The translations under genes and the position numbers were made by a program. Shown in pieces: positions 6,647 through 30,612 of a stretch of DNA of 64,000 bases (positions are counted from its first letter, which is position 1; every line of letters starts with the position of its first letter). The notes below the pieces were generated by a model. The model did not search any database and was not told where the DNA came from. It worked only from the letters and a program-made list of their open reading frames with translations. The stretch is from a virus, in the IMG/VR virus record IMGVR_UViG_3300043419_000787, positions 1-64,000 of that record, one strand, 5' to 3'.

Positions 6647-6871
6647 TTATTTTTTTGGGTTTATTAGTCCTACAATAACATAAACTAATGCAATCGGCCA
6701 AATTAGACAGATAATAGTTCTCTCGTAATTTGTCAAGCGATACTCTTCAGCACTAATTGAACTAATCATTAAATCAGCAATTAGATTAACTAATATACCA
6801 ATTCCAATATACATTACTAAATCATTAAAAATATTCATGCGGAGTTTCCTTTGGTTTCCACCAGTCTTCAA
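6647..6871 (-). CDS. Small membrane protein (2 TM)
   Basis: 74 aa with two hydrophobic helices. Confidence 0.4.
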   Translation of the reverse strand: MKTGGNQRKLRMNIFNDLVMYIGIGILVNLIADLMISSISAEEYRLTNYERTIICLIWPIALVYVIVGLINPKK

Positions 6872-7256
6872 ATATTGCTACTATGTTTTTTTCTTCAAAT
6901 GCTTTTTCAGCACAAGGTTTACAGCAAGTTGTAATCCATCCTCTGGTTCGGCCAATCTGTTCTTTAGTTCCACAAGTTTCACAAATGTCATAAGAATCTC
7001 CTTCGGCTTTTTGAATTATATTCCAGATTGTTTCATTACCTGAACCAATATAGAATCTCAATCCACCAAATTTCTCTTTAGACTGGTGAAGTTCTCCATC
7101 CCATCCAGCAGCTAAACAATCTTTAATTAATTGGGCAGTTAAATCATACCAACCCTCGCTAAATGAAAAGAAATATGCAGAGTCTATTCTCCTTCCATTC
7201 CAACCTGTTAGAGTAACTTCATTCTGTAAGAAGTTATCAAATTCCTCTCTAGTCAT
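6825..7256 (-). CDS. Hypothetical Cys-rich (zinc-binding?) protein
   Basis: 143 aa, CETCG...CCKPC cysteine cluster. Confidence 0.4.
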   Translation of the reverse strand: MTREEFDNFLQNEVTLTGWNGRRIDSAYFFSFSEGWYDLTAQLIKDCLAAGWDGELHQSKEKFGGLRFYIGSGNETIWNIIQKAEGDSYDICETCGTKEQIGRTRGWITTCCKPCAEKAFEEKNIVAIFEDWWKPKETPHEYF

Positions 7257-20283: not shown

Positions 20284-20991
20284 CTAGTTTAAAAATGTTA
20301 TTTCATTTGTTTTTGGATCCCAATCAAATGTAACTGGTTTATTTACATATTCGTATCTTTCATTTAGAATGGAAGCATTAAAATAATGAGTTCCATTATG
20401 GAACTTATAACCGTATCCACCATGAATATGTCCGCATACATGTATTTTCGGGGGTTGTTCATCTAATTTTTCTCTTAATAAGGCACAGCCTAAATTTGGT
20501 TCGTTATACGGTGGTCCACTCATATCTAAATGTCCTTGTGCTGGACCATGTGTGATTAGAATATCAGTGTCCTTTGGAATTGCTTCCCATTTTGACATTA
20601 GACCAGGTCCGCCTTTCGGTAGGTTAAATGCCCAATTATAGAATTCTGGTTGCCAAGGACTACCGTAGATTTTAGCAGTTTCCTTATCGTCTCCAACTTC
20701 TATAAAGCTGTCTTGTAAATAATCAATCCACTTATATGAATTAACTATTTCCATTGCTTGTTCTGGTTTATCTTCAAATTTTCTATCGTGATTTCCAGCA
20801 ATAAAGACTTTATGGTCATATTGTTCTAATTCATTGAACCATTTACAAAAGCGTGTAATGTCATTTGAATTATATCCCGAATTCATAAGGTCACCAGCAT
20901 GAATTAACAAGTCTCCGCCTGGAAGATCTGTTTTATCCCACATAAGTTCTTCATGCTTAGTGTGAGTATCTGATATTAAAGTTATTCTCAT
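20284..20991 (-). CDS. Calcineurin-like metallophosphoesterase
   Basis: Canonical motifs DTH (ISDTHTKH), GDLMNSG, GNHD, THGP, CGHIHGGYG. Confidence 0.85.
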   Translation of the reverse strand: MRITLISDTHTKHEELMWDKTDLPGGDLLIHAGDLMNSGYNSNDITRFCKWFNELEQYDHKVFIAGNHDRKFEDKPEQAMEIVNSYKWIDYLQDSFIEVGDDKETAKIYGSPWQPEFYNWAFNLPKGGPGLMSKWEAIPKDTDILITHGPAQGHLDMSGPPYNEPNLGCALLREKLDEQPPKIHVCGHIHGGYGYKFHNGTHYFNASILNERYEYVNKPVTFDWDPKTNEITFLN

Positions 20992-21588: not shown

Positions 21589-22347
21589 TTAATCTATTTT
21601 GCTTCCGCAGTTTGGACAGAATTTCCAAGTTTGTTTCTTCATTCTAGTTCCACAATCAGAACAATAATTTCTAATATCTGAAACTTCGATTGGTTTATTA
21701 GATTCTGCCATAATTTTCATTATAACAGTTTCGCATGGATAATTTTCAAAATCCATATCAATTGTTCCAAAATCTTGATTGGAACTTGCTCCCATTTCAA
21801 CTCTTCCAGTTTCAAAACTTTTTAAACTTGCATTGCTAGTATAAGATACAGATCCAGCAATTGAAGCTGATCCAGTTGAACTGTAAAATGCGGTATTTGT
21901 ACTGTAAGTAATTGGATTTCCTGTTGTACCAAAATAAGGGTACTGTGTTGTTGTAATAAATGGTCCACGAGGAATTGGGTAACTTGGTGGAGTTTGTTTG
22001 ATTTTTTCTCTGTAGAAAATAACCTTTACATATCCATTGTCTTCAATTGCTTTTAAAACTTCTTTATTTTTACCATCAACATCGTAAGTTCTAAAAACAA
22101 ATTTGTTGTTAGTGTCAATATAACGTTCTAAAAAGAAGTGTTGACCTGGTCTAAGAACTAGACCACTTTGTGAAATTACTGTACCATTCATATAGATCTT
22201 TGCAAGAACTGGATATGATTTTGGGTTAAATAATTCGATTTGGAATTCGTCTTCATCTTTAAGATAAAATACGTCTTCATTGTTGCCTTTATAGGCTTTT
22301 AGTCGGTTGTTTTTGACAGCAATAGCCGCCATTTTTTGTGTACTCAT
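21589..22347 (-). CDS. Hypothetical protein with C-terminal zinc ribbon
   Basis: C-terminal CSDCGTRMKKQTWKFCPNCG. Confidence 0.45.
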   Translation of the reverse strand: MSTQKMAAIAVKNNRLKAYKGNNEDVFYLKDEDEFQIELFNPKSYPVLAKIYMNGTVISQSGLVLRPGQHFFLERYIDTNNKFVFRTYDVDGKNKEVLKAIEDNGYVKVIFYREKIKQTPPSYPIPRGPFITTTQYPYFGTTGNPITYSTNTAFYSSTGSASIAGSVSYTSNASLKSFETGRVEMGASSNQDFGTIDMDFENYPCETVIMKIMAESNKPIEVSDIRNYCSDCGTRMKKQTWKFCPNCGSKID

Positions 22348-22443
22348 GTGATTTTCCTTTTGTTTTAAAACCCTTTTACTACCTTTATGATAGTTCCAAA
22401 GCCATTATTGACTCAGGGCCTCAAGTGTTTGGCACCACTTTTG

Positions 22444-22528
22444 CGGAAGATGTAGGATTCGAACCTACGGTACCTTGCAGTACAACAGTTTTCAAGACTG
22501 CCGCGATCGACCACTCTGCCAATCTTCC
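22444..22528 (-). tRNA. tRNA-Ser-like (anticodon UGA), type II with long variable arm
   Basis: Reverse complement gives GGAAGAU...AUCUUCC acceptor stem (7 bp), anticodon stem GCAGU/ACUGU, loop CUUGAAA, variable arm GUAC-UGCAA-GGUAC, T-arm GUAGG-UUCGAAU-CCUAC, discriminator G. No encoded CCA. D-stem imperfect. Confidence 0.75.
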
Positions 22529-22573: not shown

Positions 22574-25500
22574 TTAATCGTCCTTTACTGTAAGTACAAT
22601 GCTAGTTAACATTCTTTCTAATTGAGCAAGTGTAATTCCAGGTTTCGAATCTGCTGGATTTGGTTTTCCAGCCGGTGCAGCGGCTACAGGTCCTGTAGCT
22701 CCTTTAACTGCTGTAGTGTTAGGAACTGTTGATGTTGTTGGTGGCGGAGGTGGAGTAGCAACTGATTTCTTAAATTCTTCAATCATTGATGTTAATTGTT
22801 TGATTGAATCATTAAGTGCAGCACTCATTTGATTAATTGAACCAGCTCCTTTATAACCAGAAAGATATGCAAGTCCTTGGAACATATCACTTGTAAATTT
22901 CAAGTTAACTTTGTCAAACGCGTTTAAGGTATCTTTAAGTCTACCCATATCATCGACATACTTCTTGAAATTATCTACAAATTTAACCCATGGATCGATA
23001 TTTTCTGCAATCATTTTCATTTTGTCTGCAACATTTCCTAAGACAATAACAAATGATTCTTGTTGTTCTGCGTTTTCTCCAGCACTTGAAAGAGCACCAG
23101 TCATACCGCTAATAACTCCTTGAATTTTAGCATTTAATGCAACAGGATCAACATTAGTTTCCATAAATGTTTTAGCAGCATCCGCAATTTTCTTAATTGG
23201 ATCTGCAAAACTTGTTACAATTTCAACACCATCTTCGATTTTAGAAGAACCAAACCAACCCCAATCATTTTGAGCATCTGGATTATTTCCAATCTCTCCC
23301 ATAACTCCTGTTATTGCAACGACAAGAGATCTGATATTACTAGTAACTTTTGTTACAGCATCGGCACCCATTGATTCGTAACCAACGATTTTACCATCTT
23401 TATAGATTGGAATCTTAAGGTCAGCCATTGCTTGAACTCCTTTGGCAATTTCAGCAACTGCACCGCCCATACCTTGAACTGCTCCAATACCATCAGTAAC
23501 TGGATTACCGCCTCCTCCAAAAATCATATTAAGGAAGCTCTTCTGACCACCAGGATACTGAAGACCAATTTCGCCAAATACATCTGCTAAAGAACCAACA
23601 ATATTTCTAATATTACCCTTTAATCTATCAAATGCACCAGAATCTAGAGTATTATAACCAACAATTTTAGTTCCTTGATAAATTGGGAACTTAAGGTCAG
23701 CCATAGCTTGAACTCCACCAGCAATAGAAGTTAAAACATCTCCCATACCCATAACAGCGGCAATACCATCTGCTACTGGAGATTGTTTTCCACTTCCAAA
23801 AACACTAGAAAGGAAACCTGCTTTACCTCCAGGATATTTAAGTCCTAGTTCACCAAAGGTTGTACTTAGTGAACCAACAATTAAATTGATATTATCATTA
23901 ACCTTTTTAAAGGTGTCACTAGATAGTGTGTAGTAACCTGTGATTTTAGTTCCTGAGTATATTGGGAACTTTAAGTCAGCCATAGATTGAACTCCTTGAG
24001 CAATAGAAGATAAAGCATCTCCCATTCCTAAACAAGCATCAATACCATCAGCGACAGCAGATTGAGAACCACCTCCAAAAATACTACTTAATACGCTTTT
24101 TCTACCTCCAGGAAATTGTGTTCCAATTGCTCCAAAGGCTCCAGCTAAAACTGTAACTAATTTACCAATTTGATCTGGTAAAACATCATAATTAATTTTT
24201 AAATCTTGTACTTTTTTAATTCCATAAGCAACTGTTGCTAATGCAACTCCAACCATAACCATAGCCGGTGCAGTAGCATACATTGACATAATTGAAAGAG
24301 GATTAAGAGTAAATGAACGAGCAATTGATAACATCAACCACTCCATATTACTCATCATTCTTCCACCACCAAATCCCATAAATCCTTCAGTTTCATGTCC
24401 TGAATCTCCAAGCATTTTGGTCATATCAGTACTACTGAATAACTTAGCCATTGCAGCAGCTCCTAAAGAAACAAATACTAATGCAAGTCCAGCAACAATC
24501 ATTGCTGCGGCTCCAGCAAGTATAAAAGGTGCTGCGGCTCCAGCAAGTCCCATAACAAGACCAACACCAGTAACCAATGCTCCAATTTGACCGATTGTAA
24601 TCCAACCAGCTTCATCTGGAGTAATAGATGCTGCAAATATAGAAACTGCAACTCCTAATAATATAATTGGGATTGCAGCAAATATCATAACAAGAGAACC
24701 TAATAATATCTCTTTAGCAAATTTACCAGCTAACCAGAATACAACTGCAACTCCAACAACCATTCCAGCAATCATTAACATTGTCATTGCAGGATCGTCC
24801 ATCGCTTGATACATTGTATCTACTAATAAGAATGCAAGTCCTAATAAAACGATAGCTCCGGCAGCGAACATTAATCCAACACTGATTCGTTTCATTGATT
24901 TATCAACTCCCATTTTATCTAGTAAAAAGAAGAGTCCTCCAATTGCTAATAATGAAATTACAATATATGGTAATGCAGACATTCCAGCCGGGTAAATTAC
25001 CGTTGCTAAAACTAATGCAACTCCAAATAATAGAATTGCTTTTGCAACATCACCCATTGCAATTAATGCCTGTTGTGTTTTCGGATCTGATAGTGGTTTT
25101 GACGCCATTTGTAAAACTTTTGTTATAACAAATAGAGCTAGCCCAAATAATGGGGCTGCTATCATACCAACTATTAATAGAGGTGTTGCCAAGAATAAAT
25201 AACCGGCAAATTTAAGAATTGCTGGTCCAATTTTTGAAATAGCATCAATTGTAAGTACTAAGGCTTCTGCCTTTTCTTTAAATTGTTTACCACTTCCTTT
25301 CATAGATTCAATTGCTTCAACAATTGCAGCTAATCCTTTACCAATACCTTCAAGTCCTTTACCACCAACTATTTTTAGGGCAATTGCATTACCAATACCC
25401 ATTCCTCCGCCACCGCCAGAATTTCCACCGGATTGTTTACCAGAATTTGCAGTATTTTTAGCAATGGTTTTTAATAATCGAACCATCTCTTCAACCTTAC

Positions 25501-25612
25501 CAAATAGTATTCCACCCGGACTAACTGCTTCTGCAGTAATCTGGGTGGATGTACTAATATATGTAAGATTATCGACTGATAGTCGTTCAAATGGACTTTT
25601 AAAGATACTCAA
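22574..25612 (-). CDS. Putative tail tape-measure protein
   Basis: 1012 aa downstream of sheath/tube/chaperone genes. Gly-rich N-terminus, ~300 aa multi-TM Ala/Gly-rich segment, three tandem ~95-aa repeats (PGG...VADGI...MGMGD...ADLKFPIY.GTKI.GY), proline-rich C-terminus. Apparent TTG start. Confidence 0.5.
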   Translation of the reverse strand: MSIFKSPFERLSVDNLTYISTSTQITAEAVSPGGILFGKVEEMVRLLKTIAKNTANSGKQSGGNSGGGGGMGIGNAIALKIVGGKGLEGIGKGLAAIVEAIESMKGSGKQFKEKAEALVLTIDAISKIGPAILKFAGYLFLATPLLIVGMIAAPLFGLALFVITKVLQMASKPLSDPKTQQALIAMGDVAKAILLFGVALVLATVIYPAGMSALPYIVISLLAIGGLFFLLDKMGVDKSMKRISVGLMFAAGAIVLLGLAFLLVDTMYQAMDDPAMTMLMIAGMVVGVAVVFWLAGKFAKEILLGSLVMIFAAIPIILLGVAVSIFAASITPDEAGWITIGQIGALVTGVGLVMGLAGAAAPFILAGAAAMIVAGLALVFVSLGAAAMAKLFSSTDMTKMLGDSGHETEGFMGFGGGRMMSNMEWLMLSIARSFTLNPLSIMSMYATAPAMVMVGVALATVAYGIKKVQDLKINYDVLPDQIGKLVTVLAGAFGAIGTQFPGGRKSVLSSIFGGGSQSAVADGIDACLGMGDALSSIAQGVQSMADLKFPIYSGTKITGYYTLSSDTFKKVNDNINLIVGSLSTTFGELGLKYPGGKAGFLSSVFGSGKQSPVADGIAAVMGMGDVLTSIAGGVQAMADLKFPIYQGTKIVGYNTLDSGAFDRLKGNIRNIVGSLADVFGEIGLQYPGGQKSFLNMIFGGGGNPVTDGIGAVQGMGGAVAEIAKGVQAMADLKIPIYKDGKIVGYESMGADAVTKVTSNIRSLVVAITGVMGEIGNNPDAQNDWGWFGSSKIEDGVEIVTSFADPIKKIADAAKTFMETNVDPVALNAKIQGVISGMTGALSSAGENAEQQESFVIVLGNVADKMKMIAENIDPWVKFVDNFKKYVDDMGRLKDTLNAFDKVNLKFTSDMFQGLAYLSGYKGAGSINQMSAALNDSIKQLTSMIEEFKKSVATPPPPPTTSTVPNTTAVKGATGPVAAAPAGKPNPADSKPGITLAQLERMLTSIVLTVKDD

Positions 25613-25647: not shown

Positions 25648-26019
25648 TTAGAACTTAGGAGTCTTGAAACTTGGTGTTTTGAATGATGGAGCTTTCATAT
25701 TAGGCATTTTAGCTTTTGCCATTTTTTGAGGATCTCCATATTTGTCCATTGCACCTTCTTCTTGACCTTTTTGTCCGTCATTCTGTCTCTTAATATAATC
25801 TGCAAGGTCTTTAACGATATACCAATATTCGTAATATTCAAGTTTATCGATCTCAGATGGTTGTAAATGCAGATGATACATGAGATAGAACTTCGTCTTA
25901 AAGAAGTTCTCCAGCGATATCTTGAACAACGAAAAGAGATTTGATCCCGTCACGAAAGCCGATAGTAACGAGAACCTCCTCATCCTCGTGTGGTACCAAC
26001 ATTTCAGGTTGAACCCCAA
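25648..26019 (-). CDS. ORF overlapping the 3' end of 25898..26863 in the +1 frame; candidate frameshift extension of tail assembly chaperone, or independent ~77-aa protein from Met at 25881
   Basis: Overlap contains GAA CUU CUU UAA G, a prfB-like +1 slip site on CUU followed by a stop. Confidence 0.35.
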   Translation of the reverse strand: MGFNLKCWYHTRMRRFSLLSAFVTGSNLFSLFKISLENFFKTKFYLMYHLHLQPSEIDKLEYYEYWYIVKDLADYIKRQNDGQKGQEEGAMDKYGDPQKMAKAKMPNMKAPSFKTPSFKTPKF

Positions 26020-26863
26020 TTCTCATCTTTTCTGCAAGTCTATAGACTAATGAATATTTTTGTGTGTTCCAACTGTGGAACTCGATTTCACCTTTAAAGA
26101 TTTTCTCATCGTTAAATCCTCTCCAATCTAAAGTTAGGTAAGGAATGATTTGTAAATAAGATTGATCCCAAGCTTTTTTCTCAACTTGACGAACTTTAAT
26201 GTAATTTGTTACTGCTTCCATAACACCAATTGAAGGTGGTCTCATAAGAATTGTACCAAAGCTTTTAGTTTGAATTGCAAATGCACGTTTTTCATCGTCA
26301 TAATATTTTGCAATTTCATCTGGAACTTGAGACAATTGGAAATATCTAGCTGAAAGTTCAGCATCGAATTCTTCACCGTCTTTAGTTGTTGCTTTAATAG
26401 TTAATTTAGATTCTGGTTCAGGGAATGTTAGGTCTCTGATTGATAATAGAATATAAATTCTATCCTCTTCTAAGATGTCTTTGTACGATAGTACTTTTGC
26501 ACCGCATTGGAATCTAACACAGTTTTTTACAATGTGATTTAATTTGTCCTCAATATCTAATAAGTTACCTTCATCGATAGTTGAGAAATGACGTACTTCA
26601 GCTACTTGAGCTGGTCTGATTGCCATTTTAGCATCACTTGGATAGAATCTTCCACCTGATGGTAATCCAGAAATATCAATTGAATGATAACCTAAGTGCA
26701 AATCTGGGTCTAATGCAGTTTGTGTTGCATAACGGTCCATGTTTACTTTTCCTAAGTCAACTCTTTCTTCTACTTGATTTTCTTGAGCTTCTTTAGCTTC
26801 TACCATTTTACGGTACTGTTCTTCCATGTTTGTTTCGTCGTTTTGATTCTTGTTGTTTGCCAT
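25898..26863 (-). CDS. Putative tail assembly chaperone
   Basis: 321 aa, acidic N-terminus, positioned between tube and tape-measure genes. Confidence 0.4.
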   Translation of the reverse strand: MANNKNQNDETNMEEQYRKMVEAKEAQENQVEERVDLGKVNMDRYATQTALDPDLHLGYHSIDISGLPSGGRFYPSDAKMAIRPAQVAEVRHFSTIDEGNLLDIEDKLNHIVKNCVRFQCGAKVLSYKDILEEDRIYILLSIRDLTFPEPESKLTIKATTKDGEEFDAELSARYFQLSQVPDEIAKYYDDEKRAFAIQTKSFGTILMRPPSIGVMEAVTNYIKVRQVEKKAWDQSYLQIIPYLTLDWRGFNDEKIFKGEIEFHSWNTQKYSLVYRLAEKMRIGVQPEMLVPHEDEEVLVTIGFRDGIKSLFVVQDIAGELL

Positions 26864-26864
26864 A

Positions 26865-27083
26865 TTACTTTGATTTTAAGTGTTTAACTTTTGTTTTGTC
26901 CCATTCTTTATTTAAATCGGGACGTCGATCAATTTCTCGTCTTATTAGTTCTCTAATAAACGCAGAAACCGAAATAGGTCTTTGTTCAGCTTCTAATGCA
27001 TCATTTAAAATGATTATATTGAGAGCTTGGACTTCTTCGTCAGTAATTAATACCTGAAGTTTCCGGGTTAGTTTGTTTGACAT
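26865..27083 (-). CDS. Small ribbon-helix-helix-like (CopG/Arc-type) protein
   Basis: 72 aa. Predicted beta-strand LQVLITDEEVQAL followed by helix SAFIRELIRREI. Confidence 0.35.
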   Translation of the reverse strand: MSNKLTRKLQVLITDEEVQALNIIILNDALEAEQRPISVSAFIRELIRREIDRRPDLNKEWDKTKVKHLKSK

Positions 27084-27162: not shown

Positions 27163-27717
27163 TTACGCTAATACTTCTTTAAAAGTATCGCACTTCCAAG
27201 TTACTTCGATAGTAGCAGGATCTGTTGAGTCATAACTTAATTCGTTAGTAAACGGTAATCCTGATTTAATAAAGCAATCTTCTAAAGTGATTGTTCTGTA
27301 AATATCTCCAGCTCTATTGAACTGAACGATAACTAAAGTTCCAGTGTAATCTTTCTTCAAACCCATTAAACCTGTTTGAGGATCGTATTGTAAATTATAC
27401 CATTCTCTTAGAGTTTTATATAGGTAAGCTTGATTTGAATCATTTAAGTTCAAAGAGAAATTGATATTGATGTCCAATGAAGTATTGTCCGGCATACCAG
27501 CGTAAGAACGAGTAGCGAATTTGTACTTTTGTTGAACTTCAGAAACTTCTCTATATAGATCCAAACCACCGATGCTATTAACATGTTGTAATAACAATGG
27601 AGAACCTTTTACACCTGCAGGTGGAATAACAGTAACTTCAAAGAGGTTACTTTGTACCGGTTCCCATTGAGAACCTTTTCTGCTTGTCTGGTCTTGTGAA
27701 TAATGTGGTAAAGCCAT
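27163..27717 (-). CDS. Tail tube protein (T4 gp19-like)
   Basis: 184 aa. SNLFEVTVIPP near N-terminus resembles the gp19 PNLFQVEI region. Immediately downstream of sheath gene; late-type motif upstream. Confidence 0.55.
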   Translation of the reverse strand: MALPHYSQDQTSRKGSQWEPVQSNLFEVTVIPPAGVKGSPLLLQHVNSIGGLDLYREVSEVQQKYKFATRSYAGMPDNTSLDININFSLNLNDSNQAYLYKTLREWYNLQYDPQTGLMGLKKDYTGTLVIVQFNRAGDIYRTITLEDCFIKSGLPFTNELSYDSTDPATIEVTWKCDTFKEVLA

Positions 27718-27750: not shown

Positions 27751-30612
27751 TTAGCTGAAGTTTCCAGTTTGAATTTCGCCAGTATTTAATACTGTAGTTC
27801 TATGAACAACGATTTCTAAACCTTTAACTGGTTCAACGAAAGTATCTAAGATACCAATGTTGTTGTCGATAACTTCATTAGTGTTATTTGATTGATCGAT
27901 AACGTTCTTAAAGTCATAAACACCTTGATCTGCTTTAACTGATTCCATAAAGGCATCTGCTAAAGTTTTGATTTCAAGTCTTGTTTGTGCTGTATTAAAT
28001 TCAAAAACATAACCTTTAAGAATGTTAGCTAAACCTTCTTGGATGTGGATCAATACTTCTCTTACGTGTGCAGAAGAAAGTGCTGATTTAACTGATTGTT
28101 GACCAGTTTTGTTACCAAGGATGGTTAAACCTACTCCTCTTTGGAAAACGATTGGATTGATACCAAATGGTTCGATTACGTCTCTATCATTTTTATCAAA
28201 AGCGTATTCAACTCCAACAACTCCAGTTCCAGATACAACTCCTCTTCTTGGACCAGCAATAATTGACCAAGGTAATGCGGTTGAATATTTATCGATGTAG
28301 TTATTAGATACGTAAGCAGCTGGTGGTACAACGATGTCCTTTCCGTTCTCTCTGATTAATAAACCAGGTCCATAATAGAAACCATAGTTAGCTCCATCAC
28401 TGATTGAAGGAAGTGTATAGAATGCAGTTGGATTTTTATCCAAGTTTCCACCATCTTTCAAATACATTGCATCAAATGCTCCACTTCCATCGGTAAATGA
28501 TGGGTTAGTTGATTTTTTGAAATCAGCAATTGTTGGTGCATTTAAGATAGCTGCAGCATTTTGTCTTTCGTGTGCTAAATAAGAAAGTTCTTTCTTATTT
28601 TGTAAACCTTCAACAGTATCATAAGAACCAAAAGTATCAACGATATATCTGTAAAGAATTAAATCTTTGTCAGCTAATGCGTCAAATAAGTTAGTTCCGC
28701 TAAGTGCTAATAAACAATCTGCGATTGATTTATCACCAACAGAAGCTTTAGCTAAAATGAATGGTACATATACATCAGTTGCTTCTTCGAAAGAAACAAT
28801 ATATTTTCCACCAAATACGCTAGGTACAGTAGAATCACAAGTTACTGTTACGGTTGTAGTTCCGCCAGCTACTGATTTAGCTACTGATTTAATTTTAGCA
28901 AGTCTTCCAGCAGTTGCAGAAGGAACATATTGTCCTTTCTTAAGCGTTACTGTTGAAATTGGAGATGCATAAGTAAATTTAAAGATACCACCACCTAAGT
29001 TTTCATAAGTTGCAGTAACATTACCACTTCCTGCTAAGTTCAATTCAGTACCGTTGTAAGTGATAACTCTCTTAGTTGTAATTGCATATTTTTTAAATGA
29101 AGTTAAACCACCTAATGCAATTTTAACAGGTCCATCACATGTGATAGTTGTTTTGTCAGCAGCATATGAAACTCCAGTTACTTCAACATATTCTCCTGTA
29201 GCTTGAGCTTCAATAAATGTACCAACCGCGATCAATGAAGTTAAATCAACATGATGTGCATATAATTTATTAACATCTCCGCCTGTTCCAACTTCAGTTA
29301 CTGCAGGATTAAATGTTCCATAAGGAATATTATTATTAGCAACCAATGAAGTATAAGCAGATGCAAATACAGTTCCAGTAATTGTTACTTGAGTATATGG
29401 TTCAGCACCAGTTACGTAAGTAGATCCAGTGATGATACCCCAAGTAGAAGCACCAGTTTTAAGATATTTAGAAGTTGTAAAATCTCCAGATAAGTTAGTT
29501 GTAGAATAAATCTTCAATACTGAACCTGAAGCAGTAATTCCAGAAGCTGTTAAAGTAGGAACAGTAAGTAAACTTGTAGTTGCTTGGTCAACGTGACCAG
29601 CTCCTAAAGAAACTGTAGTACCAGATGCTGGACTTAAATCTTGGTTTACTTTATAAGATAATAGATCGTAATTTTGATCTTTATCGTAAACGTGTCCAAC
29701 TAAATCAACATTAGTTCCTGTTTCTTCTTGTACGTTATCTTCATCAACAGCACAGAATAAACCAGTTCTTCTAGCTTCTGCGTTAATCATTGTTTCAACA
29801 TACATGTTTCTACCTTCAAGATCTTTGAAGTTAGGAATTAATGAACCAGTGTATTGAGCAATTAAAGAAACTTGTCTCAAATTAGAGAAAGCTGATAATT
29901 GGTCTTTTAATAAACCAGATGTGTTAAAGTAGTTTTTGTAAACCGGGTCAGTTGCTAAAGTAGCAGCATCGAATTCACCTTTGAAAACGAAAACGTCTAC
30001 CATAAAATCTGACAAATAATCTTTATCATTTAAGAATGCAGGAACATTACCTTCTCCGTACCACTCTCTAGCAGTAACTTCGAATGTAGCAACGTCTTGT
30101 GCTTTTCTTACAAAAATAGTAATTGGCTCTTGTTTAATGTTAATGAAATTAATCATTCTGTTGTTATCTGTACCAATTGTTGAGATAACAGCTGCATCGC
30201 TTGGATACCAGAATTTATCAGTGTCGAAAAACTTAGTGTATTCATCACTTCCTGATTCAGCAATTGCAGTGTGGTCGCTACCATTGGTAACGGGTGCTAC
30301 ATAACTGATTTCATCAGAAGCTTCGAATGTTGCTAAGTTTAAGGCAAGGATCGGACCTCTAGTAAGAGCTGCAAATGCAGATCTGTGAAAGAAGATACCC
30401 TTCTTCTCTAGGTTTCTATCAATACCACCGAAGATTGCGTTGAAATCTTCTGTAGACTGAATAAGAACTGGAGTATTGTAAGGGCCCTTTTTAGAGTGAC
30501 CAACTACCAATCTGATAGTCTCTGTCGCAAAGTTCGTTGTTTGTGATTTATCGAATTCTAGACGATAAACACCTGAACTCTTAAATTGCAATAGTTGAGG
30601 ACTTAGTGCCAT
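27751..30612 (-). CDS. Contractile tail sheath protein (gp18-like) with inserted domains
   Basis: N-terminal LSPQLLQFKSSGVYRLEFDKS resembles the sheath SPGV..E.D start. C-terminal GINPIVFQRGVGLTILGNKTGQ...SALSSAHVREVLIHI matches the conserved sheath C-domain. 953 aa. Confidence 0.8.
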   Translation of the reverse strand: MALSPQLLQFKSSGVYRLEFDKSQTTNFATETIRLVVGHSKKGPYNTPVLIQSTEDFNAIFGGIDRNLEKKGIFFHRSAFAALTRGPILALNLATFEASDEISYVAPVTNGSDHTAIAESGSDEYTKFFDTDKFWYPSDAAVISTIGTDNNRMINFINIKQEPITIFVRKAQDVATFEVTAREWYGEGNVPAFLNDKDYLSDFMVDVFVFKGEFDAATLATDPVYKNYFNTSGLLKDQLSAFSNLRQVSLIAQYTGSLIPNFKDLEGRNMYVETMINAEARRTGLFCAVDEDNVQEETGTNVDLVGHVYDKDQNYDLLSYKVNQDLSPASGTTVSLGAGHVDQATTSLLTVPTLTASGITASGSVLKIYSTTNLSGDFTTSKYLKTGASTWGIITGSTYVTGAEPYTQVTITGTVFASAYTSLVANNNIPYGTFNPAVTEVGTGGDVNKLYAHHVDLTSLIAVGTFIEAQATGEYVEVTGVSYAADKTTITCDGPVKIALGGLTSFKKYAITTKRVITYNGTELNLAGSGNVTATYENLGGGIFKFTYASPISTVTLKKGQYVPSATAGRLAKIKSVAKSVAGGTTTVTVTCDSTVPSVFGGKYIVSFEEATDVYVPFILAKASVGDKSIADCLLALSGTNLFDALADKDLILYRYIVDTFGSYDTVEGLQNKKELSYLAHERQNAAAILNAPTIADFKKSTNPSFTDGSGAFDAMYLKDGGNLDKNPTAFYTLPSISDGANYGFYYGPGLLIRENGKDIVVPPAAYVSNNYIDKYSTALPWSIIAGPRRGVVSGTGVVGVEYAFDKNDRDVIEPFGINPIVFQRGVGLTILGNKTGQQSVKSALSSAHVREVLIHIQEGLANILKGYVFEFNTAQTRLEIKTLADAFMESVKADQGVYDFKNVIDQSNNTNEVIDNNIGILDTFVEPVKGLEIVVHRTTVLNTGEIQTGNFS

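Follow-up and report, generated by a model that had tools for sequence, protein, structure and literature searches.

The tail assembly chaperones of the lambda gpG/gpGT type, on which Xu, Hendrix and Duda worked in 2004, are reportedly produced by a programmed frameshift. Such G-T frameshifting is described as conserved in long-tailed phages "except T4", and the same source lists sites of the form UUU_Ynn as especially prone to +1 shifts in bacteria, UCC_UUU_CGU being the cassette of influenza PA-X (PMC5009743). Here we consider two overlapping open reading frames (ORFs), ORF1 and ORF2, in IMG/VR virus record IMGVR_UViG_3300043419_000787; the first 64,000 nt of that record, the whole stretch that was analysed, are referred to as the window, all coordinates are positions in it and the genes of the region lie on its minus strand. 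ORF1 ends ...GAT ATC GCT GGA GAA CTT CTT TAA G, and the open stretch of the +1 frame extends from 26019 to 25648, with 41 codons before the ORF1 stop and 83 after it. The preliminary description of this DNA, made from the letters alone, had read the end of ORF1 as GAA CUU CUU UAA G and put the overlap with the +1 frame at about 120 nt; both readings are correct, the overlap measuring 122 nt. It is reported below that the end of ORF1 codes in two frames, and it is argued, with about an even chance of being right, that ribosomes enter ORF2 by a +1 slip on UUU_CGU some 55 nt (~55 nt) before the ORF1 stop, which would yield a 404-aa fusion.

The locus resembles lambda G/GT in having two overlapping ORFs between the tube gene and a tape-measure-like gene, the second probably being reached from the first, close to its 3' end and in another frame, and here too much of a short product and little of an extended one would be expected. 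It differs in that the shift would be +1 and not the usual -1 on an X_XXY_YYZ heptamer, in a long overlap of 18 codons with both frames conserved, in the nature of ORF1 (321 aa and probably of the T4 gp26/gp51 family, versus 100-150 aa for a tail assembly chaperone, or TAC) and in ORF2 being autonomous in some relatives. No ORF2 start is conserved clade-wide, the window and most close relatives having GUG at the onset of the overlap and some relatives ATG. With the UUU_Ynn sites of E. coli argI, Yersinia YopN-TyeA and influenza A PA-X the locus shares the core UUU_CGU/CGC, on which tRNA-Phe can re-pair on UUC, a probably rare Arg codon in the A site and no need for a stop codon or downstream structure. 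Unlike those sites it has a bacterial host, probably of the Bacteroidota, a variable E-site codon and a conserved GAGG 17 nt upstream that has no counterpart in them. The CUU_UGA_C site of E. coli prfB is similar in having CUU right before the stop and the downstream ORF in +1, but here the stop is UAA-G, no Shine-Dalgarno (SD) sequence is conserved at 3-nt spacing, there is no autoregulatory logic, the conservation of CUU is due to the overlapping frame and +1 decoding would begin upstream of the stop. The MS2 lysis gene, which lies out of frame over the coat gene and is expressed by coupling, may be a parallel as well, as a small +1 gene inside the 3' end of a highly translated gene, although a start codon conserved across the clade is missing here.

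The dual-coding end of ORF1

The arrangement of ORF1 and ORF2 is common to more than 100 related loci, ranging from Lak megaphages to Sphingomonas phage PAU. The +1 frame stays open through the ORF1 stop in 79/79 usable close loci (48-98% identity) and in all distant relatives. Directly after the T of TAA the close loci encode K-[T/V/A]-K-F, with wobble variation of the types AAG/AAA, ACG/ACT/ACA and TTC/TTT, and after the ORF1 stop 334 substitutions leave the +1 protein unchanged but alter that of frame 0, versus 52 of the reverse kind. The predicted protein is marked by a helix at its N-terminus, the motif QPSEI..YYEY, another, long helix and a basic tail of (K)MPxxK repeats; its AF2 model has a pLDDT of 65 and it matches PHROG 8286 (E=5e-5), while a Pfam search of ORF2 gave no match. 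By these comparative signs ORF2 is a real and widely conserved small helical protein module, the frame of which runs through the ORF1 stop, and the preliminary description was right to take the downstream +1 ORF for a genuine coding region. In every lineage examined ORF2 lies in frame +1, the -1/+2 frame having stops, but this was rejected as independent evidence for frameshifting since an ancestral overlap locks the relation of the frames by descent.

Public annotations of ORF2 begin at arbitrary internal codons in PAU, MA9V, PTm1, pT24 and MaF61 (the loci with annotated starts are L003, which is PAU, at ~6850..6950, L002 at 5515, L005 at 4908, L006 at 4800 and L004 at 4890), and the annotated starts of PAU gp94, MA9V_007 and PTm1 ORF-023 fall inside or past the conserved QPSEI/PYYEY motif. 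Better start candidates in PAU are a GGGAGG-N6-ATG in the +1 frame inside gp93 and an AAGGAG-N4-ATG right past the gp93 stop. Lak-B5 (L088, ~3856) has an in-frame stop in the continuation of the ORF2 frame where Lak-C1 has Glu; TAG recoding has been reported for Lak phages and would fit this stop if it is TAG. An alternative genetic code was rejected for the window: code 11 leaves its structural genes unbroken, and the stop at issue is TAA.

For analysis of selection, codons were threaded onto an alignment of 57 unique ORF1+ORF2 sequences of 404 codons. The entropy of frame-0 third positions is 1-1.8 bits along ORF1 and drops to a mean of 0.15 bits at codons 307-321, versus 1.24 elsewhere (Mann-Whitney p=1e-10); this is the lowest-entropy 15-codon window of the 404-codon alignment, and the loss of synonymous variation is limited to codons 303/307-321. 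Frame-0 first positions, which are wobble positions in +1, still vary within the overlap (V/I/L, I/L/F, A/T/S), most of the changes being silent in +1: TCN, TTR, AAR, CTK and ATH, never ATG. Substitution events were also counted along a minimum spanning tree as synonymous in frame 0 only or in +1 only. There were 63 of the former and 12 of the latter at codons 294-302, 18 versus 42 at codons 307-321, together with 20 that were nonsynonymous in both, and 52 versus 334 past the ORF1 stop. The last ~18 codons of ORF1 are dual-coding, with selection acting in both frames.

A homologous ORF2 N-terminal segment occurs free-standing, downstream of the ORF1 stop, in L102, L104, L107, LR756501 and P0181/P0182 (for example SILSMFKINLENFFKAKL), and these lineages are independent proof of dual coding. 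The resolved overlaps lie at 2190..2330 in L104, 2110..2260 in L102, 2200..2350 in L107 and 3760..3900 in L091 (LR756501). In L104 and L102 the frame-0 reading of the downstream copy is a decayed ORF1 tail (DKFGEFF*), the frame having decayed into stops, which indicates that the overlap was resolved by tandem duplication; in all four lineages the upstream copy retains the ORF1 tail and the downstream copy the ORF2 N-terminal helix. Third positions of the ORF1 tail are relaxed in the resolved lineages, three of which have ATT, TTA or CTA and not CTT as the last sense codon.

RNA structure was considered as a cause of the synonymous constraint and rejected, RNAalifold giving -2.4 kcal/mol and a positive covariation penalty for 45 unique junctions. 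A perfect 7-bp hairpin, GAACUUC-N8-GAAGUUC (25882..25912, minus strand), with the ORF1 stop in its loop, is present in the window; wobble changes break it in relatives and it is thus probably fortuitous.

Entry into the +1 frame

Many lineages have a +1-frame stop at -21 to -23 (numbered in +1 codons, with the ORF1 stop as origin), past which the frame stays open, and these stops bound the point of entry to ORF1 codons ~302-305. Two candidates fall within this interval, the sequence UUU_CGU and a GUG in the +1 frame (Table 1). A wider sample, assembled independently of any pattern at the site, comprised 71 unique lineages with Arg-Asp (R-D) at codons 304 and 305. Codon 303 is TTT in 71/71. For Arg, 48 lineages use CGT and 23 use CGC; none uses AGA, though AGA makes up 74% of Arg codons in the family. 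The Asp codon is GAC in 69/71, though GAT makes up 70% of Asp codons; GAT would give rise to a +1 ATG at -17 and is avoided, being found in 2/71. The third positions of all three codons are fixed. In the 23 CGC sequences GCG replaces GUG and there is no ATG, GTG or TTG before a TTG at -10, yet TTT, CGC and GAC are still kept, and it is the fixation of UUU, CGY and GAC in these variants that favours a +1 frameshift at UUU_CGU. "TTT C" is present in PAU, pT24, Lak, LR756500/1/2, L096 and L102-L109 and is near-universal in distant lineages, often as TTT CCC, at which tRNA-Phe and tRNA-Pro can both re-pair in +1, though CCC accounts for only 5% of Pro codons. Across the gene family CGT forms 15%, CGC 2% and CCC 5% of the synonymous sets, and some lineages have CAA, CCA or CCT at the A-site position. 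In L108, LR756501, LR756500 and L096 the stretch upstream of the conserved ORF2 segment is without ATG, GTG and TTG, and the +1 frame opens just 1-2 codons before TTT; in ~22 lineages start codons in the entry interval were estimated to occur at about chance frequency. The overlap begins at UUU_CGY, and this site and the +1 frame are conserved across a very broad phage clade.

With a +1 shift at UUU_CGU, most ribosomes would read ORF1 to the UAA and make the 321-aa protein, and a minority would pause with tRNA-Phe on UUU and the rare Arg codon CGU waiting in the A site. The tRNA-Phe would then re-pair one base forward, from UUU to UUC, and decoding would go on in +1 as GUG ACG GGA UCA... to the ORF2 stop at 25648. 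The 404-aa fusion would have the junction ...VLVTIGF|VTGSNLFSLFKISLENFFKTKF... (...VLVTIGF|VTGSNLFSLFK); the junction peptides predicted by this shift are ...EEVLVTIGFVTGSNLFSLFK, VLVTIGFVTGSNLFSLFK and IGVQPEMLVPHEDEEVLVTIGFVTGSNLFSLFK. Such a protein, made beside the tape-measure gene, would correspond in function to lambda gpGT. We infer frameshifting rather than initiation as the route of entry, together with its efficiency and the chaperone function. A fusion of ~400 aa made by a +1 shift had been foreseen in the preliminary description, and as a 404-aa product it is the best single explanation, with the site moved from CUU_UAA to UUU_CGU. Involvement of a phage-encoded tRNA was rejected, the only tRNA of the window being tRNA-Ser(UGA). 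The wider proposition, that UUU_CGY/UUU_CCC is the site of a programmed +1 shift by which a T4 gp26-like hub/tail chaperone is fused to a small "T-like" module across jumbo phages and megaphages (Lak, LR7565xx, PAU, the Tenacibaculum/Chryseobacterium/Flavobacterium jumbo phages and abundant aquatic relatives), is put at a little short of even.

A purine-rich, SD-like GAGGAGG lies within ORF1 upstream of the proposed slip site, in a phage whose genes are otherwise without SD. Codon 296 is GAG in 56/57 sequences, though 72% of Glu codons in the family are GAA, and "GAG GTC" occurs at the equivalent place in ~19/21 distant lineages. The element is lost in L104, which has a free-standing, ATG-initiated ORF2, and its counterpart in PAU is the GGGAGG-N6-ATG of the +1 frame. 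GAGGAGG is 17 nt from UUU and 21 nt from GUG, too far for a known SD effect on a +1 shift and too far to serve the GUG. The window has a GC content of 33% and its long ORFs all start with ATG behind A-rich leaders, SD-like 4-mers being at chance level (7/56); this is the pattern of Bacteroidota hosts, and the host is probably a member of the Bacteroidota, the ribosomes of which are normally SD-blind. In F. johnsoniae the prfB shift proceeds at ~7% without pairing of SD and anti-SD (SD-ASD) (PMC10798248).

A number of observations weigh against a shift at UUU_CGU. No natural in-frame ORF1-ORF2 fusion was found among the best 120 of 924 word-index matches, 34 ORF2 matches and the best 150 of 624 HMMER representatives, the exceptions being a contig with a 1-nt deletion (L100/P0001) and the fragment P0332, which has two frame errors. 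The GUG begins 1 nt after the proposed slip, is kept in 53/57 sequences of the first set and sits one codon apart in two subfamilies, the onset of constraint shifting with it, and 61/61 unique close-family sequences have either GTG(-18/-17) or TTG(-10/-5). ORF2 is autonomous with an ATG start in L104 and P0181/P0182, PAU has its GGGAGG-N6-ATG upstream of the ORF2 segment, the conserved GAGG is beyond the range of known SD stimulation of +1 shifts, and L087 has TTC in place of TTT.

Most of these observations speak equally for the best surviving alternative, in which ORF2 is an independent overlapping gene without recoding, started at GUG 25953 (TTG 25929 in variants) and perhaps coupled to the translation or termination of ORF1. 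The product would be a 101-aa protein with the N-terminus (f)M/V-TGSNLFSLFK and there would be no fusion. The GTG at -18/-17, found in two subfamilies just where synonymous constraint sets in, the presence of GTG or TTG upstream of the stop in all of the 61 close-family sequences, the autonomous ORF2 genes, the canonical SD-N6-ATG of PAU and the lack of natural fusions (again among the best 150 of 624 HMMER representatives) would all be explained, and gene callers often start ORF2 at GUG. What this alternative does not account for is that TTT, CGC and GAC, sites that could vary synonymously in frame 0, are fixed upstream of the first start in the 23 further unique sequences with GCG for GTG, that the preferred Asp codon GAT is avoided where it would supply an ATG, that a canonical start is missing ahead of the conserved segment in four lineages and that starts across the ~22 lineages are no commoner than chance. 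The leader of the GUG is not A-rich, and in a genome that uses ATG behind A-rich leaders without SD an internal GUG is in a poor initiation context. Independent initiation as the sole route is, on balance, rather unlikely, although frameshifting at UUU_CGU and internal initiation may both operate.

The preliminary description had proposed a slip of another kind, in which tRNA-Leu would move +1 on the last CUU of ORF1 at the UAA, exactly as in E. coli prfB; the product would be a 404-aa protein of ORF1(1-321) followed by KTKF.... Its junction had been written ...AGELL|FKTKF, but a prfB-type +1 slip adds no Phe and the junction would be ...GELL-KTKF..., with SLFVVQDIAGELLK (...DIAGELLK(TK)) as junction peptide. 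In the 79 close loci CUU UAA R does not vary, unlike the penultimate Leu codon, CUU_U is the classical +1 site and every relative has a +1 frame that is open from the stop on; in the window a CTT-stop end is found in 1/63 ATG-initiated ORFs of >=100 aa, namely ORF1, and a +1 overlap of >=41 codons in 3% of ORF ends. In L104 the +1 frame is closed upstream, so that the ORFs could be fused in no other way than by shifting at the last codon, and the F. johnsoniae prfB shift of ~7% needs no help from an SD (PMC10798248). The invariance of the final CTT-TAA, however, follows from the +1 codons TTC TTT AAR (Phe Phe Lys) and not from the needs of a slip site, and a slip at the stop leaves the selection of the +1 frame over the 15-18 codons upstream unexplained and would deprive the fusion of the conserved ORF2 N-terminal helix. 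The +1 replacement of Phe by Tyr, as a change of CUU to CUA at the last ORF1 codon would cause, occurs naturally. The overlap is kept in all 79 close loci, but CUU-UAA, invariant among these, is not conserved further afield: the last sense codon of distant relatives is ATT, TTA, TCT, GAG, GAA, AAG, AAA or TTT, and that of resolved overlaps ATT, TTA or CTA. UAA-G is a strong stop context, and the stop is UAA G/A in all close relatives. A prfB-like SD was rejected as well, since the GGAG upstream of the last CUU is found in 45/57 unique relatives (elsewhere TCAG, GGCG or GACG) and is wrongly spaced, at 5 nt as against 3 nt in prfB. A slip at CUU_UAA as the way into ORF2 is very improbable; a minor extra shift there may occur, with nothing that specifically supports it.

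The T-run hinge CUU_UUC (25936..25931) precedes the stop by 11 codons, and a slip of +1 or -2 on it would give the junction GIKSL(F)SLFK. NTT TTC is widely conserved, and contig L100/P0001 equals L011 minus one T in the run, with a contiguous fusion GIKSL|SLFK. The candidate was downgraded because +1 constraint starts upstream, already affecting the codons TCA AAT CTC (from ATC AAA TCT), and because the run is broken (TTA TTC, ATA TTC) in L051, L096, L103 and Lak; UUC, besides, is not a slow codon, and the chance of a slip here appears slimmer still. L100 (JGI contig Ga0102867_1000377, 2656..2700) is identical to L011 over the 150 nt compared except for the T lost from CTTTTC, which creates a 399-aa fusion; the deletion could be a sequencing error or a natural variant. 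Least probable of all is a separate 77-aa protein from the ATG at 25881 as the only ORF2 product, with the upstream +1 ORF a chance open frame and KTKFYL and SNLFSLFKISLENFF untranslated, the outcome that the preliminary description had named as fatal to its own proposal: the ATG is 17 nt past the stop and gene callers give 77-aa products in the closest relatives (P0158-P0160), but many relatives lack it (e.g. KTKFHIYLKLHIQPSE), with no ATG between the stop and the QPSE motif, and coding-type variation is seen in the +1 codons between the stop and this ATG, as is the evidence of dual coding well upstream of the stop.

ORF1, its relatives and neighbouring genes

Relatives of ORF1 are found in the Lak megaphages of Prevotella, the LR7565xx huge phages, Sphingomonas phage PAU (gp93), Chryseobacterium phages MA9V-1/2, Tenacibaculum phages PTm1 and pT24 and Flavobacterium phage MaF61. 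IMG/VR holds at least 287 further related loci, and extra IMG/VR scans with MA9V-1 and PTm1 queries gave no new ones. ORF1 of the window has no Pfam match and is itself under the threshold of PF12322 (T4_baseplate; T4 gp26), the 24.5-bit cut-off of which is passed by its homologues PAU gp93 (33.9 bits) and P0118 (26.7 bits); precomputed PF12322 matches exist for ~12 more homologues. The AF2 model of ORF1 has a pLDDT of 82.6. A Foldseek search of BFVD with this model returned many models of a "baseplate hub subunit / hub assembly protein, T4-like" (E 3e-9 to 3e-4, probability 1.00), and the fold has a weak similarity to tail assembly chaperones. ORF1 is T4 gp26/gp51-like by its fold and is the candidate hub/tail assembly chaperone. 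The designation tail-chaperone ORF in the preliminary description agrees with the weak TAC-like fold, but there is no canonical -1 slippery heptamer and ORF2 lies in +1. The C-terminus of T4 gp26, ...RGLKEFFELL*, is similar to ...GIKSLF..ELL* of ORF1 (G-[ILV]-K-x-[LI]-F...ELL*), and T4 gene 26 also yields two products, gp26 and gp26'. However, gp26' arises by in-frame internal initiation, and T4 is without ORF2, gene 25 coming after gene 26.

The order of genes on the minus strand is sheath, tube, a 72-aa ORF, ORF1, ORF2 and a 1012-aa ORF resembling a tape measure; the gene for the large terminase subunit is also upstream of ORF1. This agrees with the location by the tape measure given in the preliminary description. 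Size and position argue for its assignment of 22574..25612 as the tape-measure gene, and the family match is weak (PHROG 788 "tail protein", E=1e-4); in relatives a very large ORF occurs 0-3 genes after ORF2. For the 72-aa ORF no family match was found; its sequence recurs in LR756500 (L001, 5198..5740), where a 180-aa ORF in the equivalent position contains it as its C-terminal part, and a version of 70-90 aa is present in most relatives.

Table 1. Positions of ORF1, ORF2, the sites discussed and the neighbouring genes in the window
Feature	Coordinates	Strand	Remarks
Tail sheath gene	27751..30612	-	953 aa; upstream of ORF1; PHROG match 4e-127
Tail tube gene	27163..27717	-	upstream of ORF1; PHROG matches 5.6e-39 and 9e-9
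72-aa ORF	26865..27083	-	between tube gene and ORF1
ORF1	25898..26863	-	321 aa; predicted T4 gp26/gp51-like baseplate-hub assembly protein, weak TAC-like fold; proposed "G" part
Purine-rich, SD-like GAGGAGG	25975..25981	-	ORF1 codons 295-297; 17 nt upstream of UUU
UUU_CGU, proposed +1 slip site	25952..25957	-	ORF1 codons 303-304; UUU at 25957..25955
GUG in +1 frame, alternative entry	25951..25953	-	start codon of 101-aa ORF2; 1 nt after proposed slip
Dual-coding overlap	25898..25953	-	frame 0: ORF1 tail ...RDGIKSLFVVQDIAGELL*; frame +1: ORF2 N-terminal segment (V/M)TGSNLFSLFKISLENFF
CUU UAA, slip site of the preliminary description	25898..25903	-	last CTT 25903..25901, TAA 25900..25898; CTT TAA G to 25897
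ORF2 reading frame	25648..25953	-	101 codons from GUG; 83 codons after ORF1 stop; proposed "T" part
First +1-frame ATG 3' of ORF1 stop	25879..25881	-	would begin 77-aa product; 17 nt past stop
Tape-measure-like gene	22574..25612	-	1012 aa; hydrophobic segments, internal repeats; putative function from position and size
tRNA-Ser (anticodon UGA)	22443..22528	-	directly downstream of tape-measure-like gene; sole tRNA in window
252-aa protein gene	21589..22347	-	downstream of tape-measure-like gene; C-terminal zinc ribbon, Pfam scores just under threshold
235-aa ORF	20284..20991	-	after 252-aa gene; putative metallophosphoesterase likeness by eye

Implications for the tails of T4-like phages

Whatever the mechanism of entry, the end of ORF1 provides a clean natural case of a long-lived dual-coding overlap of 18 codons that has been resolved by tandem duplication in some lineages. 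The internal GAGG, occurring in phages of SD-blind Bacteroidota, is a lead on how phages use or alter the ribosomes of their hosts, and if the shift at UUU_CGU is real this conserved element 17 nt upstream would act in hosts whose ribosomes normally ignore SD sequences. The shift would also add a site of the PA-X type to phage tail assembly, and would give annotation a rule for this gene pair, which essentially all of the public records examined call wrongly. Chaperone pairs made by frameshifting are a hallmark of long-tailed phages, with T4-type tails named as the exception. Should the fusion be real, proteins of the T4 gp26 family would be placed in the role of tail assembly chaperones as the missing G/GT-type chaperone of T4-like tails, and the function of gp26 would become testable.

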